The position numbers were made by a program, and so were the translations under genes. Below the pieces are notes generated by a model, which had not been told where the DNA came from, did not search any database, and saw nothing but the letters and a program-made list of their open reading frames with translations. A stretch of DNA of 52,390 nucleotides from a virus. Lineage: Duplodnaviria; Caudoviricetes. The stretch is taken from the IMG/VR virus record IMGVR_UViG_3300027970_000038, positions 1-52,390 of that record; one strand, given 5' to 3'. This document shows positions 4,457-52,390 of the stretch, piece by piece. Every line of letters begins with the position of its first letter. Positions within the stretch are counted from its first letter, which is position 1.

Positions 4457-5204
4457 GGGTTTTGTAATCATGGCACAAGGAAATGACTATGTTAAGTGTG
4501 CCAAAGCACTCGAACATAGCATCAAGAATGTGATGCCAGACAGCAATGTAACGATCATTACTACAGAGATGCTACCTTACGGGGATCAATGTCCTGATAC
4601 TGATTGGAAATTACAGAATGATTGGCAGGTATACGAAAGCAGTCCGTATGAATACACGATCAAGTTAGAAGCTGACATGTATATCCCACAATCCATAGAT
4701 TTCTGGTGGGACGTATTGAAAGATCGGGATATCGCGGTGTCTACTACAGCGAGAAACTTCAAACAAGATATAACAGACATCAACATGTATCGTAGATTCA
4801 TCGTTGACAATAATCTACCAAATTGCTATAACGGCATCACCTACTTCCATAAGTCGGATCTAGCCAAACAGTTCTATGAGACAGTGCGAACTATCTTTGA
4901 GAACTGGGAAGAGTTTCGTAATACTCTCAAGTGTAATGTCGATGAACTAGCTACCACAGACTGGGTGTATGCACTCGCTTGTCATATCTTGGGAGTAGAG
5001 AATACGACGTTGCCTCATGCTACTTTTATGTCAATGATACACATGAAACAATTCATTAACGGTCTTCCAACTGAAAACTGGACAGATACACTAGTTTATG
5101 AGATTCTTCCACATACATTAAGAGTCAACACGATTCCGCAAATGTATCCTTTCCATTATCATGTCAAGTCGTTTGCTGATACAATATTGGAGAATACTAA
5201 ATGA
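4449..5204 (+). CDS. Putative GT-A glycosyltransferase (paralog of 3442-4257)
   Basis: KGFVIMAQG start, SPYEYTIKLEADM motif equivalent to the paralog's DxD region. Confidence 0.6.
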   Translation: MDKGFVIMAQGNDYVKCAKALEHSIKNVMPDSNVTIITTEMLPYGDQCPDTDWKLQNDWQVYESSPYEYTIKLEADMYIPQSIDFWWDVLKDRDIAVSTTARNFKQDITDINMYRRFIVDNNLPNCYNGITYFHKSDLAKQFYETVRTIFENWEEFRNTLKCNVDELATTDWVYALACHILGVENTTLPHATFMSMIHMKQFINGLPTENWTDTLVYEILPHTLRVNTIPQMYPFHYHVKSFADTILENTK

Positions 5205-17467: not shown

Positions 17468-17542
17468 ATGATAAACAAATACAATACCGAAAATGAAGTC
17501 CCATTCGGCTGGGTTAAAGGAAGAAGATCAAATTTTGGGTAA
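17468..17542 (+). pseudogene. Possible homing-endonuclease C-terminal remnant
   Basis: 24-codon ORF ending VPFGWVKGR, a tail motif of phage free-standing endonucleases. Confidence 0.35.
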
Positions 17543-17550
17543 TATGTAAA

Positions 17551-17581
17551 TTGACACTATTATACATTTAATGTATAAATA
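17551..17581 (+). promoter_or_regulatory. Combined sigma70-like/late promoter of tmRNA
   Basis: TTGACA-17 nt-TATAAA, where the -10 is also a full TATAAATA late box. Confidence 0.65.
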
Positions 17582-17586
17582 TAAAT

Positions 17587-17930
17587 GTAATTGATGACCG
17601 AGTTAATAGTTGTACAAGACCCGAACTGCGATGTTCGGCGCCTCCACCACAAGCACATTATTCCAGCCCGCAAGGATGGAAACTCGCGAGCCCTTTACTA
17701 GGTAACAAGTAGGACAGATATGCGAGCCTACTTAATGTGTTTCTGATGGGGGCGAATTAGTATCGATTGGCGACGAAAAGACAAGCGAGATTTCCGGTAA
17801 GACACGACCGTCAATTAGTTCAAAAAACTAAATGCTAACGACAATGATAGCATCATGGACATGCGCTTAGCTGCATAACCCCATATGAGTTTTGCTAGTT
17901 GAACTTGGAAACAGAATCAACTAGCGCCCC
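17587..17930 (+). ncRNA. ssrA: Permuted (two-piece) tmRNA
   Basis: Acceptor piece ends ..CCGAAC TGCGAT GTTCGG CGCCTCC ACCA (17649); coding piece starts GGGGGCG (17748), giving a 7-bp stem with G3.U70; tag ORF ANDNDSIMDMRLAA* at 17834-17878; outer ends approximate. Confidence 0.92.
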
Positions 17931-36566: not shown

Positions 36567-37499
36567 ATGAATACTAAAATAGAAGAATTTATCCGAAGGT
36601 CGAAATACCGAAACGCGCATTTATATGATGATACCTTAGGAGAAGGCTATGATTATGTAATTTGCCCTGTTTCCAACGCCCGCATGAGTATGATTAAATC
36701 CTCATATATTGAGCGTATATTGGGAATGACAGTAGAAGAGTATGATGCGAAGTACCCCGGAGTTAAAAAGATAGCGCAAAAAAGAAAAGCTAATATAAGT
36801 GCAGGTCTTAAACAATTAGACCCGGATACCGGAAAAACAAAATACGAATTATCACAAGACAAAGCAAGAGCTAAGTTGGAATCTATTGGCCCAGACGGAC
36901 TTACTGGATACGAGCGCAAAGGTTTACAAACACGCGCAACTCATATGGCTAACATTGATGAATCAGGGCGCAACGGGTACCAGCGTCAAGCCTATAATAG
37001 AGTTACTACTGTTTTAGAAAATGGATTAACCGTAGAACAGAATGCTCATATAAAACTTAGACAAACCCTTTTAAAGCAGGGAATAACCAGAGTAGTAGGC
37101 GCAAGCAGAATATCAAAGAAAATATTGAAACCAATATTATATTACCTAGACGAACACCAAATTAAGTATTATTTTGATAAAACTGAATATGCTATCAACG
37201 ACGGTGAAGGCAACTATTACTATTACGATCTTACTATTCCGAATTTTAATATGGTAATAGAATACCAGTCTAATGCATGGCATGCCGATCCGTGCATTAC
37301 TGAAGATGCATGGAATAAATGGAAAACTCCGAAAGGACCGGTAAGAAATGCGGATCAGGTTTTAGCACGAGATTATAAAAAAGCTAAAGCCATATATGAA
37401 CAGCGGGGGTTCCGTACGTATTTTGTATGGGAAAACACTCAACAACAGGATATAGAAACTTTATTATGTTTGCTGAAAACACTGAATACGAAATATTAA
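36567..37499 (+). mobile_element. Free-standing Vsr/DUF559-like endonuclease between the terL halves
   Basis: YYYDLTI..VIEYQSNAWH..RD..K..GFRTYFVWE nuclease motif; own TAAATA promoter. Confidence 0.75.
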
Positions 37500-38827
37500 C
37501 ACCCTCAGGGTGGAAAGACTTTAAAGGAATAACCTTTTCAGGAAAAAAGACCACGTATAAAATTACTCTAACGAATGGTAAAACAGTTGATGCTACTGAG
37601 GCACATTTCTTTTTTAATGGTAAAAATAAAATACCGGTAAAAGAGTTAAATGTTTCGGACTATATTGATACTGTGGATGGACTTGAACAAATTATCGGCA
37701 TAAACGAACAAGAACAAACTGAAGTATATGATATCATAGAAGTAGAAGATGAACTACATAGATTTTTAGTAAATGACGGTATTATAACAAAAAATTGCGA
37801 TGAATTTGCGTTCGTCCGCCCTTCAATCGCTAAAGAATTTTGGACTTCTATCACACCCACGCTAGCAACTGGTGGTAAGGCGATCATCACATCAACCCCG
37901 AACTCAGACGAAGATCAGTTTGCTCTAATCTGGAAGATGGCTAACAAGACTGAAGATGAGTTTGGCAACACGACAGAAGTAGGGGTCAACGGCTTTAGAG
38001 CATATAGAGCATATTGGCACGAACATCCTGAACGTGATGAGAAGTGGGCAGAACAAATGCGTGCCCAGCTCGGTGATGATCGTTTCAACCGAGAGATAAA
38101 TTGCGAATTTATTATTGCGGACGAGACTCTGATAAATCCAAACACACTGATCATGCTTGAGGGTGTTGAGCCTATCAACCGAATGGGTCAGGTCCGCTGG
38201 TATAAAAAGCCCGAGAAGGGTAGGTTATACGTAGTTGCGCTGGATCCTTCCTTAGGTACCGGAGGCGATCCTGCTGCTATTCAAATATTTGAAGCAAGTA
38301 CTACTACGCAGATAGGTGAGTGGAAGCACAACAAGACTGATATCCCCAGTCAGATTAAGTTACTTGCTGAGATTTGTAAGTACATCGCAGAACAGACTTT
38401 GGAACCAAATAATATATATTACTCAATTGAAAATAATGGTATCGGTCAAGCTGCGATTGTTTCATTGAACGAGTATGGTGAATCAAATATATCCGGTATC
38501 TTTATTAGTGAGCCAGGTAAAGGTAGAAGAGGATTCACTACCACTAACAAACCTAAACTTGCCGCGTGTGCTAAATTCAAAACACTGCTAGAATCAAAGA
38601 AGATGTCTATTCATAGCCGATCACTCATCAGTGAACTTAAAGCGTTTGTAGCTTCTGGTGGAAGCTATGCGGCTAAAGTAGGAGACCATGACGATTTGAT
38701 AATGGCTTCACTATTAGCAGTTAGAATTATGACACAACTAGCGGATTATCACGGTGACTTAGAGAGCCAAATTCGTGACCATGATGACATTATCCTGCCT
38801 TTACCTTTCTTTGCAGTCATTTCTTAA
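37466..38827 (+). CDS. terL: Split intein C-fragment fused to terminase large subunit C-part
   Basis: MFAENT.ILTPSGW, TEAH block B, VYDI, ends ITKN/C (37795/37796) then DEFAF, ITSTPN, LDPS.G.GGD, HDDL. Confidence 0.92.
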   Translation: MFAENTEYEILTPSGWKDFKGITFSGKKTTYKITLTNGKTVDATEAHFFFNGKNKIPVKELNVSDYIDTVDGLEQIIGINEQEQTEVYDIIEVEDELHRFLVNDGIITKNCDEFAFVRPSIAKEFWTSITPTLATGGKAIITSTPNSDEDQFALIWKMANKTEDEFGNTTEVGVNGFRAYRAYWHEHPERDEKWAEQMRAQLGDDRFNREINCEFIIADETLINPNTLIMLEGVEPINRMGQVRWYKKPEKGRLYVVALDPSLGTGGDPAAIQIFEASTTTQIGEWKHNKTDIPSQIKLLAEICKYIAEQTLEPNNIYYSIENNGIGQAAIVSLNEYGESNISGIFISEPGKGRRGFTTTNKPKLAACAKFKTLLESKKMSIHSRSLISELKAFVASGGSYAAKVGDHDDLIMASLLAVRIMTQLADYHGDLESQIRDHDDIILPLPFFAVIS

Positions 38828-50331: not shown

Positions 50332-50621
50332 ACAAAAGTGCAAGTCGGAACGAGGCTGCAAAGCACTATAAAAAAAGAACGGGCGGTGATAGGGATGAAA
50401 TCTGCGGAGAGAACGCAGAGAGTAAAAACTTTCAGTGAGGAACATTGTGATTCCTCGCAAGCGGGCAAGTCCGAAATGCCGGACAACATAGTCTCGCTTG
50501 TCAACAAAAGGCTAACCTATATCAAACTTTAAACATAGTGTATATCGCCAGAAGGTCGGCTTTTATCTGACCACCGGGTGCTAGAAAGACACACATTTTG
50601 ATATGAATGGGAGGATTGTGC

Positions 50622-50695
50622 TGGGGGATAGCACAATTTGGTAGTGCGTCGGTTTTTGGTACCGAAGGTTCTAGGTTCGAGCCCTAGTCCCCCAG
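50622..50695 (+). tRNA. tRNA-Gln(TTG), no encoded CCA
   Basis: TGGGGGA/TCCCCCA acceptor, TCGGT-TTTTGGT-ACCGA anticodon arm, GGTTCGAGCC T-loop. Confidence 0.85.
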
Positions 50696-50720
50696 CACAA
50701 TCCTCTCGGTACCATAAAAG

Positions 50721-50796
50721 GCCGCCTTAACTCAGTTGGTAGAGTATCTGTCTAGTAATCAGAATGTCGGCGGTTCGATTCCGTCAGGCGGCACCA
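50721..50796 (+). tRNA. tRNA-Thr(AGT)
   Basis: GCCGCCT/AGGCGGC ACCA, anticodon loop CT-AGT-AA, canonical D and T arms. Confidence 0.85.
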
Positions 50797-50810
50797 TTAC
50801 TCATTATAAT

Positions 50811-50889
50811 GCATCTGTATGCCGCCTGTCTTCGAAACAGGAGAAAGCTAATTGGATACATGTAGGTTCGAGTCCTACCAGATGCGCCA
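50811..50889 (+). tRNA. Atypical D-arm-less tRNA-Arg(TCG)-like RNA
   Basis: GCATCTG/CAGATGC GCCA, CCTGT-CTTCGAA-ACAGG, GTAGG-TTCGAGT-CCTAC; only 7 nt where the D arm should be, 20 nt in the variable region. Confidence 0.75.
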
Positions 50890-50907
50890 ATCTTTATTAT
50901 TCTTTAT

Positions 50908-50992
50908 GGGCACGAGGCTCTACGGTGGAGCAACTGACTTTTAATCAGTCGAGATTTATCTCAAGTGGGTTCGACTCCCACCGTGCCCTCCA
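50908..50992 (+). tRNA. Atypical tRNA-Lys(TTT) with long variable arm
   Basis: GGGCACG/CGTGCCC TCCA, ACTGA-CTTTTAA-TCAGT, variable hairpin GAGA-TTTA-TCTC. Confidence 0.8.
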
Positions 50993-51004
50993 CCTATTTT
51001 GAAT

Positions 51005-51054
51005 TCCTTTTAACAAATTGTTAAAAGGAGGTTCAAATCCTTCTATCTGCACCA
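51005..51054 (+). pseudogene. tRNA 3'-half remnant fused to a hairpin
   Basis: GGAGG-TTCAAAT-CCTTC TATCTGC ACCA without a matching 5' half; upstream TCCTTTTAACAA/TTGTTAAAAGGA palindrome. Confidence 0.6.
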
Positions 51055-51059
51055 ACAAC

Positions 51060-51134
51060 GGGTCTATAGTTCATTGGTAGAACGCTGTCCTGACTCGACA
51101 GAGGTGGAAGGTTCAATTCCTTCTAGACCCACCA
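51060..51134 (+). tRNA. tRNA-Val(GAC)
   Basis: GGGTCTA/TAGACCC ACCA, CTGTC-CTGACTC-GACAG. Confidence 0.85.
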
Positions 51135-51251
51135 AAGTTTATGGGGCCGTCTTGTATGTCTATATTCCAAAAATAGAAGTAACCAAGAGAAAAATACGGT
51201 CCCGCTAATTAAACGATGTCAAAAATAATTCTCAAGCAGGCAACTTTTTGG

Positions 51252-51280
51252 TTGACATTATTCCTGTTATGTCGTACATT
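51252..51280 (+). promoter_or_regulatory. sigma70-like promoter inside tRNA region
   Basis: TTGACA-17 nt-TACATT. Confidence 0.6.
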
Positions 51281-51313
51281 GAGAATATAGAGAGTGACAA
51301 AAGAAGTTCTCTC

Positions 51314-51324
51314 GTTCTTTGACA
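51314..51324 (+). promoter_or_regulatory. boxA-like antitermination site
   Basis: GTTCTTTGACA resembles rrn boxA (TGCTCTTTAACA), about 30 nt after the promoter and right after a GAGAG/CTCTC hairpin. Confidence 0.5.
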
Positions 51325-51350
51325 TCGTTAGAAAATAATAAGTCTCTTGC

Positions 51351-51576
51351 GAGACTTATTAGATGAATGCTACGTTGAGCCACCCAAAGGCTCATAACCG
51401 TACAAAGGTTTTTGTGGGTTCAATTCCCACGTGCGGGGTTTGGGAACGTAGTATTCTTCTAATAAGTATCGTGTGAGACTTATTAGATGAACATTCTGAG
51501 CCGCAAGTTTTGATGCTTGAGGAATGCAGACAGTAGAGATGAGCGATCTACCGGAATGTTCTTCTAATAAGTATCG
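51351..51576 (+). repeat. Two tandem cassettes with identical complementary flanking arms
   Basis: GAGACTTATTAGATGAA (51351, 51475) ... TTCTTCTAATAAGTATCG (51454, 51559) around different inserts. Confidence 0.85.
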
Positions 51577-51767
51577 TATGGTCTGGTGTTCTTAGAAAGG
51601 GAGTTCCTGCTAAGTGGCGAACTCTTTTGCTCTGACCAGCAACGGAGAGGATAGGTCAGTATCCTAGGGAAGTGCAATTCTTCCAAGCATTAACAATAAG
51701 GGTCGCAATCAGCCGAACCAATGATTGTGTGATTGAAGGTAATATGGTTCCTTCTTCCGAATGTTAC

Positions 51768-51843
51768 GCCGAAATAGCTGATGTGGTCTTAGCGCCTGAT
51801 TGAAGCTCAGGAGATGCTCGTTCGATCCGGGCTTTCGGCACCA
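51768..51843 (+). tRNA. tRNA-Phe(GAA)
   Basis: GCCGAAA/TTTCGGC ACCA, CCTGA-TTGAAGC-TCAGG. Confidence 0.9.
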
Positions 51844-51878
51844 AGAATAACCCTTACTGTTACAGTAAGGTAAAGAAT

Positions 51879-51961
51879 GCGAGTATGGCGAAATTGGTAG
51901 ACGCACTAGTTTTAGGTACTAGCGGGCAACCGTGGGGGTTCGAGTCCCTCTACTCGCACCA
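51879..51961 (+). tRNA. tRNA-Leu(TAG)
   Basis: GCGAGTA/TACTCGC ACCA, CTAGT-TTTAGGT-ACTAG, variable arm. Confidence 0.92.
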
Positions 51962-52049
51962 ACCATAAGCAGTACCGTCTGCTGAACCAATATCGGATTG
52001 AGATTAAGTTCTCTTGGTGGGTATTGAAAACAAAACGGTTCAATTTATT

Positions 52050-52134
52050 GCCCCGATGGTGGAATCGGTAGACGCGGAAGATTCAAAATCTTTTGCCGCA
52101 AGGCGTGGGGGTTCAAGTCCCTCTCGGGGCACCA
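52050..52134 (+). tRNA. tRNA-Leu(CAA)
   Basis: GCCCCGA/TCGGGGC ACCA, GAAGA-TTCAAAA-TCTTT, variable arm. Confidence 0.92.
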
Positions 52135-52137
52135 AGT

Positions 52138-52325
52138 TTGTAGTGGGTGTTGGAAGTATTAGTCACAGAGCCTAGGCTGGCCAGTTGAATCTCTGTAAAG
52201 GATGACGGTTCAAGTACGTATCATAGCAACCATCTGACGATGACTTCAACAACTAACCCTACCGACCGGCGCTTCTAATTGGTCGATAATGCTGCTGATG
52301 TTGTGGTACAGCAGGCCCACTATAA
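52138..52325 (+). ncRNA. Candidate multibranched structured RNA
   Basis: TTGTAGTGGG/CCCACTATAA closing stem with several internal hairpins; no ORF. Confidence 0.45.
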
Positions 52326-52390
52326 AGCATAAATATTCATGGGAGGGTTCCTATGAAGAAACTAGCAATATTGTTTTTGTTCTTAGTGCT

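Follow-up and report, generated by a model that had tools for sequence, protein, structure and literature searches.

The window analysed here, by which we mean the whole stretch of 52,390 nucleotides (nt), is an IMG/VR virus record with an estimated completeness of 14%, and its last part is occupied by an array of transfer RNA (tRNA) genes. Inside this array, at 51334-51576, there is an element made of two consecutive units that have the same left arm and the same right arm, each pair of arms enclosing a different small RNA, which we call the cargo. An earlier reading of this DNA (the original prediction) had described it as a modular cassette in which identical complementary arms clamp different cargos. 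The element is preceded by a promoter-like site and by a boxA-like leader, and is followed by the next tRNA of the same transcription unit. The coordinates are collected in Table 1.

Table 1. Features of the tRNA array and of the clamped units in the window.
Feature	Position	Strand	Description
tRNA array	50622 to contig end	+	
sigma-70-type promoter-like site	51252..51280	+	TTGACA, 17 nt, TACATT
boxA-like antitermination leader	51314..51331	+	GTTCTTTGACATCGTTAG, 18-mer
strain-variable cassette	51335..51664		swapped as one block in close relatives
small hairpin between boxA and clamp	51337..51360	+	AATAAGTCTC, loop TTGC, GAGACTTATT
left arm, unit 1 (5' strand of clamp helix)	51351..51367	+	GAGACTTATTAGATGAA, exact
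cargo 1, 86 nt	51368..51453	+	9-bp stem extension, two hairpins, T-arm-like hairpin, 14-nt insert before the 3' stem strand
right arm, unit 1 (3' strand of clamp helix)	51454..51471	+	TTCTTCTAATAAGTATCG, exact
left arm, unit 2	51475..51491	+	GAGACTTATTAGATGAA, exact
cargo 2, 67 nt	51492..51558	+	two small hairpins
right arm, unit 2	51559..51576	+	TTCTTCTAATAAGTATCG, exact
third structured spacer, without arms	51577..51664	+	weak fold (z -0.82); last part of the strain-variable cassette
tRNA-Phe(GAA)	51768..51843	+	next tRNA of the same transcription unit

The arms of the two units were found to be exact repeats, as had been predicted, and beyond what shuffled patterns give. When the window was searched with each arm pattern at up to 3 mismatches, 4 matches were obtained, namely the 2 exact copies and the 2 partner arms on the other strand; shuffled patterns gave a mean of 0.25 (left) and 0.09 (right) matches and none of 100 reached 4. 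The arms were absent elsewhere in the whole record. It was also possible to see in the predicted folds the long stem that the original prediction had proposed, with both unit-specific extensions (TGCTACGTT/AACGTAGTA and CATTC/GAATG) paired. The predicted fold of unit 1 had -52.1 kcal/mol (z -6.34), that of unit 2 had -37.7 kcal/mol (z -6.79) and that of 51330-51580 entire had -96.3 kcal/mol (z -8.46), and each time 0 of 200 shuffles were as good. The cargos folded alone were far less exceptional (z -2.29 for cargo 1 and -1.16 for cargo 2), which argues that the arms carry the folding signal. Inside the 17-nt arms of the window two stem positions are mismatched, position 3 with G.A and position 14 with U.U. 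A coding reading of the arm region was ruled out, given that the open reading frames (ORFs) overlapping 51334-51576 are all of 43 amino acids (aa) or less. By blastn, the tRNAs were the only matches of 50500-52390, and 51290-51580 gave against 50,697 GenBank phage records only 10 chance-level matches of 31 nt, in coding genes.

The exact arms were found in IMG/VR at 13 and 7 loci, only one of these 20 (L006) having the paired partner arm; the remaining 19 look like chance matches in coding DNA and were discarded. An inter-tRNA motif of the window led to 33 related loci, two paired-arm patterns to more, and a scan of metagenomes to one more. In total, this search of the genome and its relatives for further arm pairs, which had been suggested with the original prediction, yielded 31 distinct arm-pair instances on the tRNA strand, with many different cargos, all from related uncultivated phage contigs. 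Since the seeds came from the element or from its neighbourhood, the set over-represents conserved arms.

Across 30 instances and 24 positions of the clamp helix, 93.5% of the cells were standard pairs, and this value fell to 37-45% when the partner strand was slid by 1-3 nt. Both-sided, compensatory changes were present at 17 of the 24 pairs, and none of 500 column shuffles reached any of the four measures used. Read as antisense, the helix paired in 85.7% of the cells versus 93.5% on the tRNA strand. Position 3 is a G.U pair in 20 of 28 instances and, considering that these pairs worsen the antisense pairing, selection acts on the helix as an RNA with the polarity of the tRNAs. The U.U mismatch at position 14 occurs in 23 of 28 instances, and it is retained in locus L185 while the pairs flanking it have been swapped by a double compensatory change. 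Positions 4-6, 9, 10 and 13 were invariant in all 28 and the inner positions 18-24 covary freely. As in a leader-trailer helix of a ribosomal RNA (rRNA) operon, a helix of more than 17 base pairs (bp), here 24 bp, flanks an enclosed RNA and is kept by covariation. No Rfam family was detected at the element with the gathering thresholds, and at E ≤10 there were only a partial match to the T arm of transfer-messenger RNA (tmRNA) and a minus-strand match to Fusobacteriales-1 (E 4.9). In the literature covered, we found no description of such clamps or of boxA-led phage tRNA arrays.

The modular character of the cassette was confirmed by its contents: the cargos of the 31 instances, of 42-131 nt, fall into 24 unrelated clusters, and the clustering also agrees with the original prediction that cargo 2 is unrelated to cargo 1. 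Exact seeds from the two cargos, a 23-mer and a 25-mer, respectively, were both absent from IMG/VR (0 loci). The cargos of 9 related loci gave no Rfam family at E ≤0.05, and no rRNA match was found among the cargos, so that the enclosed RNA is not a ribosomal one. According to its predicted fold, cargo 1 is a cloverleaf-like RNA, derived from a tRNA or mimicking one. Parts resembling tRNA-Met had been proposed in it, and this stood only partially. The T-arm-like hairpin of 5 bp (GTGGG-TTCAATT-CCCAC, 51414-51430, the one with the partial tmRNA match in Rfam) is there and so is GGCTCATAACC, but the GGCTC of the latter is paired with GAGCC in the predicted fold, and cargo 1 was not called as a tRNA by ARAGORN or by the Rfam tRNA model (gathering and E-value thresholds). 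T-arm-like hairpins were present in 8 of the 31 cargos, cargo 1 included, against a mean of 0.007 in shuffled sequences and 0 on the antisense strand. The T arm of L060 and L070 adjoins the 3' stem strand, like a tRNA whose acceptor stem were prolonged by the arms, and L185, with one arm unit, has a cargo with D and T arms similar to those of tRNA-Glu; a homologue of the third spacer of the window follows that unit. This enrichment speaks in favour of some tRNA-mimic role of the cargos.

The clamps are also mostly located next to tRNAs. Of 27 sense-strand instances, 21 have 7 nt or less between the end of the stem and the start of a tRNA, 18 of these with a gap of 0-2 nt, and the adjoining tRNAs are Thr-UGU, Ala-UGC and Phe-GAA. 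A third arm hairpin, in locus L052 (6015-6148) and placed beyond the point where the window ends, runs between tRNA-Ile(UAU) and tRNA-Leu(GAG): the 3' terminal CA of the tRNA-Ile is at the same time the first two bases of the arm (2-nt overlap), and a gap of 1 nt separates the end of the arm from the tRNA-Leu. Five large records were found to have between one and three (1-3) arm pairs, which without exception are inside a tRNA array or GOLLD RNA or adjoin one. Two of these records are complete genomes, one of 360,683 nt with terminal repeats and the other of 171,566 nt. GOLLD (184-205 bits) was detected inside the same tRNA arrays in L036, L038, L046, L043, L061, L091 and others, and the arm hairpin adjoins it in eight loci (L027, L034, L036, L038, L043, L046, L061 and L091). 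The hairpin usually begins about 6-9 nt past the 3' end of the GOLLD model and runs to tRNA-Ala, and in record G005 it is located on the GOLLD 5' side. The manA RNA (62-70 bits) was found in the tRNA arrays of L006, L037, L039 and L045. Neither GOLLD nor manA was detected by Rfam in the 52 kb of the window. In L076 (G005, about 234,815-235,180) there are a left arm and a tRNA-like cargo, with an ORF of about 80 aa in the place of the right arm; judging by this arrangement, the clamp looks like one broken by an insertion or a deletion.

The cassette differs as a block between close strains. The closest relative, L052, has 91-96% identity with the window along more than 5 kb, the value being 96% on both flanks of the cassette, and in it 350 other bases replace 51335-51664. 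Among them, at 4676-4830, there is a different clamp of 15 bp, CACACTTTACGTCAA/TTGACGTAAAGTGTG, enclosing a tRNA-like RNA (Rfam tRNA, 42.5 bits) with acceptor, D and T arms and without anticodon arm. Between 51334 and 51665, a contig of metagenome run X13 shows a different stretch of 731 letters. These two places are also where contigs of run X15 break, and a contig of run X11 joins 51370 to 51559, that is, left arm 1 to right arm 2. As L052, X13, X15, X11 and L185 all differ there, the slot behind boxA is hypervariable and was repeatedly occupied by tRNA-like RNAs.

Upstream of this slot, the promoter-like site scores 10/12 and is the only one on the + strand in 50500-52390, the relatives having TTGACT-N17-TATAGT at the equivalent place. 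The boxA-like leader starts 34 nt past its -10 element. GTTCTTTGACA at 51314 matches the gamma-proteobacterial boxA consensus GYTCTTTAANA given in PMC5725501 at 10 of 11 positions, and this site was the sole match to GYTCTTTRANA on either strand of the window. In 9 aligned loci GTTCTTT and most of the next 11 columns were invariant, with boxA positions 8-10 varying in L006, L039 and L045; a boxA-like 11-mer is located 23-150 nt upstream of the arm in 13 of the 31 instances. In all cases boxA is followed, before the arm, by a small hairpin, either of the AATAAGTCT type, which overlaps the arm, or of a GC-rich UUCG type, which does not. In the window the 3' strand of this hairpin is the outer half of left arm 1, and AATAAGTCTC at 51337-51346 is able to pair with the first 10 nt of the arm. 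The sequestration of left arm 1 by this upstream segment, as originally proposed, is therefore possible as pairing, but it is not the conserved property, considering that other relatives have the UUCG hairpin without arm overlap; from the sequences compared, the conserved feature at this place is a small hairpin between boxA and the first arm.

The 18-mer GTTCTTTGACATCGTTAG was searched in 185,579 species genomes, and 79 matches at 78 loci were obtained. Among these, 29 lie 192-240 nt upstream of the 27F site of 16S rRNA, all of them in Sphingomonadales; for another 19 the contig stops shortly after the motif. In Sphingomonadales, 4-7 nt past the 18-mer, GATGAAGGGACATGTGGGCGACGGC pairs with GCCGTCGTCCTCATGTCCCTTCATC, located just after the 16S 3' end, forming a leader-trailer helix of 25 bp with a single U.U mismatch; the 18-mer is thus directly ahead of the 16S processing stem. 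In Novosphingobium (for example in L122) the leader strand starts with the 9-mer TTAGATGAA, which is also the core of the left arm of the phage. The leaders of other Sphingomonadales share only GATGAA with the phage arm, and the Sphingomonadales trailer and the phage right arm have ATGT..TTCATC in common. Such likeness is suggestive of homology between the arm and the host 16S stem and does not prove it. The window also has a two-piece (permuted) alpha-type tmRNA gene at 17531-17925 (RF04321, 101.9 bits; RF01849, 96.6 bits), a type that fits an alphaproteobacterial host. RNase III genes were present in five of five candidate host genomes. No RNase III was found in 5 phage records, 2 of them complete, for which reason the enzyme, if involved, would be that of the host.

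Sequences related to boxA were also observed outside this leader. In the 16S-23S spacer of the Sphingomonadales loci L105-L175, the trailer strand of the 16S stem is immediately preceded by CAAAGAAC, which is the boxA core in reverse complement. The metagenomic arrays L184 and L188 have a boxA-like motif between tRNA-Trp and tRNA-Ile. Phaeobacter phage MD18, a cultured roseophage (L190, 2449), has one 118 nt before the first tRNA of its array, and also a GOLLD-like stretch. The MD18 variant is widespread in genomes, mostly in Planctomycetota, and among the matches listed a 27F site was within 1 kb in 6 of 80; being widespread and seldom near 16S, this variant says nothing on the matching of phage and host.

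The reading that we favour, holding it to be somewhat probable, is that the cassette is built like an rRNA operon, with a boxA antitermination leader and, after it, clamps of the leader-trailer type, which serve for the folding of small RNAs and, probably through cuts by the host RNase III, for their release. In the rrn operons of E. coli, boxA immediately precedes the leader strand of the leader-trailer helix. This helix contains the RNase III site and needs more than 17 bp, and it has been proposed that the leader is retained by the antitermination complex until the trailer has come out (PMC10250234). In the phage, the sigma-70-type promoter would drive a transcript on which the host-type boxA comes first and would recruit NusB/NusE and other Nus factors, by analogy with rrn and with lambda nut. 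The Nus complex would make the RNA polymerase resistant to Rho on this untranslated transcript. After boxA and the small hairpin, two tandem helices of the leader-trailer type would form, each clamp of about 24-26 bp with its conserved U.U closing round a small structured RNA, as the 16S processing stem does round 16S rRNA. The clamp would isolate the folding of the cargo and would then probably be cut by the host RNase III, and this cut would free the cargo as a presumably stable, stem-capped small RNA. In most relatives, those whose stem adjoins a tRNA, the same cut would free the 5' leader of the tRNA for RNase P. The slot is exchangeable, and RNAs derived from tRNAs or mimicking them, such as cargo 1, are frequent in it. 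As regards the RNase III-type processing that had been predicted originally, it obtains indirect support, by analogy, from the host-type boxA leader, from the arms being similar in length and layout to the host 16S stem, and from the RNase III genes of the five candidate hosts.

Several observations weigh against this reading. In 18 of the 31 instances there is no boxA within 150 nt, and the two units of the window do not adjoin a tRNA, being located at 296 and 191 nt from tRNA-Phe, among the 5 exceptions. Beyond boxA, the likeness between arm and host stem is short, consisting of the 9-mer and of ATGT..TTCATC with an indel; MAFFT did not align the arm with the host stem on the leader side, and the outer 11 bp of the arms (AGACTTATTA/TAATAAGTCT), which are their most conserved part, have no counterpart in the host stem. 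The putative assignment to Sphingomonadales is drawn from one exact 18-mer together with the alpha-type tmRNA. Finally, the leader-trailer helix of E. coli has an essential role that is independent of RNase III (PMC10250234), and consequently the clamp need not be a cleavage site.

This last point is also in line with an uncleaved structural leader or insulator, an explanation that we consider unlikely. According to it, the hairpin would prevent the misfolding of the neighbouring tRNAs or of GOLLD, and the cargos would be evolutionary filler; it might additionally, once set free by RNase P and by processing at the 3' side, shield ends against exonucleases, or it might slow down RNase P at the tRNA next to it. 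The stem is flush with position +1 of the tRNA in most relatives, so that RNase P alone would yield a blunt-ended hairpin. The hairpin of L052 is bracketed by two tRNAs in the same tight manner, and the cargos of the window fold, by themselves, weakly better than shuffles. However, double-stranded RNA of at least two helical turns is a general substrate of bacterial RNase III. Divergent phages have cargo families in common, in one of which (L038/L045) paired changes were seen by eye, and the T-arm-like modules are strongly enriched among the cargos.

The main rival, to which we give a decidedly low probability, is a scaffold similar to the Y RNAs, in which the stem with its U.U would dock a specific phage or host protein, and the cargo would act as effector or tether, the whole forming stable ribonucleoproteins. 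It would account for the conservation of the outer 17 bp beyond what pairing needs, for the U.U kept through compensatory change and for the T-arm-like hairpins of 8 of the 31 cargos; bacterial Y RNAs are described as a conserved stem plus a tRNA-like domain, and they can be side by side (PMC4201824). Nevertheless, the partner was not found: the search for a Ro60/TROVE gene was negative in 10 phage records, of which 2 are complete, and in five of five candidate hosts, 101 genomes of the host order gave 2 weak partial matches, and no candidate partner protein was identified. The RNA does not correspond either, given that at 51334-51576 there was no Rfam YrlA match at E ≤10, that the arms do not have the GNCGAAN0-1G stem motif described in PMC4201824, and that the order of the tRNA-like arms differs from the permuted order of YrlA.

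It could also be thought that the arms act as DNA, either as terminal inverted repeats of a small mobile element or as recombination or homing sites, with the RNA fold as a by-product. The block replacement of 51335-51664 in close strains, the contig that joins left arm 1 to right arm 2 and the small ORF in the place of one right arm in G005 speak in its favour, but we regard it as very improbable. The covariation of 17 of 24 positions, the G.U pairs that make the arms unequal as DNA repeats and the better pairing on the tRNA strand (93.5% versus 85.7%) speak against it; the breakpoints of the replacement, 51334 and 51665, are outside the arms, and no transposase or integrase was seen adjoining, although no systematic search for them was made. 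With only 1-3 arm pairs per large record, all in or beside a tRNA array or GOLLD, a proliferating mobile element is disfavoured, and a miniature inverted-repeat element was discarded, as many dispersed copies with equal terminal repeats were not found. A transcription terminator or attenuator gating the downstream tRNAs is hardly credible and was rejected: several right arms do end in a T run (AAGTTTTT) and the upstream AATAAGTCTC is an alternative partner of left arm 1, but that alternative is itself not conserved, the stem at its base is not GC-rich but rich in AU and includes G.U pairs, the scan of 50500-52390 gave no + strand terminator-like site, and the element is directly behind an antitermination signal and directly before tRNAs that need expression. 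Readings as retron, CRISPR or toxin-antitoxin RNA were dropped on anatomy, with no regular repeat-spacer array present and reverse transcriptase not looked for.

If the organization like that of an rRNA operon is true, large phages build their operons of tRNAs and non-coding RNAs on the plan of the host rRNA operon, from which both the antitermination signal and the type of clamp helix would be shared. This would explain how long untranslated phage transcripts, including those that carry GOLLD, could escape Rho. The identity of boxA would allow a host prediction from sequence (Sphingomonadales) for a clade of uncultivated jumbo phages. The conserved socket, which accepts at least 24 different small RNAs, would offer a natural collection of candidate small RNAs of phages, one in four of which is tRNA-like, and might also serve as a design with which structured RNAs are expressed in bacteria. 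A bolder extension, which we offer as rather doubtful, is that the clamp is a scaffold for display and release: the copied rRNA leader would hijack ribosomal antitermination and RNase III for the mass production of hypervariable small RNAs, including mimics of the tRNA elbow, that would act in the conflict between phage and host as decoys or inhibitors of defences that target or sense tRNAs, or as partners of the GOLLD nanocage. The block replacement between near-identical strains would be, in that case, the trace of an arms race.

Other features of the window concern the phage itself. Its large terminase is of the T4 type, and the nearest cultured relatives of this protein, with 43-50% identity, belong to the jumbo phages Sinorhizobium phage Phosso, Agrobacterium phage Atu_ph07 and Salicola phage SCTP-2. 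Phosso, the nearest of them with an alphaproteobacterial host, has its tRNAs scattered among genes, without a comparable array. The terminase (37427-38827) aligns with cultured relatives only from about residue 125 onward, and residues 39-80 gave a sub-threshold match to intein splicing (22.6 bits, cut-off 35.8). The sequence of the window was present in DNA runs of lake-water and freshwater metagenomes, 0 of 22 runs being recorded as RNA. In the array, a tRNA at 50811-50886 was detected by Rfam only (40.7 bits) and missed by ARAGORN, and about 51000-51052, between tRNA-Lys and tRNA-Val, there is a further remnant similar to a tRNA, which has a T arm and in which CACCA is encoded. Just 3' of tRNA-Leu, the motif AGCAGTACCGTCTGCTGAACC (51966-51986), formed by a small hairpin plus GAACC and exact in 33 IMG/VR contigs, opens a conserved structured spacer closed by TGAACC/GGTTCA.

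By comparison with known systems, the bacterial Y RNAs (YrlA/YrlB) are similar in their long conserved stem formed by the 5' and 3' ends, in the tRNA mimicry of D and T arms, in the presence of several of them side by side and in their occurrence also in phages near tRNA genes (PMC4201824); unlike them, most of the cargos here are not tRNA-like. GOLLD (RF02032) and manA (RF01745) share the same tRNA arrays of related phages, and the arm hairpins fall outside their Rfam models. In the tRNA cluster of phage T4, species 1 and 2 (rnaC/rnaD) are small structured RNAs of unknown function that are co-transcribed and co-processed with the phage tRNAs, and species 1 RNA is a substrate of RNase III in vitro; these are not known to have a common clamp sequence, a boxA leader or exchangeable cargo.

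With lambda nut the cassette has in common a phage-borne boxA shortly downstream of a promoter and then a small hairpin (for the role of the Nus factors, PMC10250234). It differs in that no N-like protein was identified, in that the sequence of the hairpin varies between relatives, in that the operon encodes tRNAs and small RNAs instead of mRNAs, and in the phage itself, a large one of lytic type with a T4-type terminase and not a lambdoid. With the rrn leader the cassette has in common the order known from E. coli, in which a promoter and boxA precede one strand (5') of a helix longer than 17 bp, and the other strand (3') is located past the enclosed RNA (PMC10250234); the 18-nt boxA region of the phage is identical to that of the Sphingomonadales rrn leader, the helix has 24-26 bp in the phage and 25 bp in the host with a single U.U in each, and tRNAs come after the helix. 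In contrast, the phage encloses mutually unrelated RNAs of 42-131 nt and not 16S rRNA, it has two tandem clamps, its boxA is followed by a hairpin before the helix begins, nothing in the host corresponds to the outer 11 bp of its arms, and many clamps of the relatives are far from any boxA. The element works like a leader-trailer helix but is not an rRNA processing stem, and by the same analogy it would probably be cut by RNase III.

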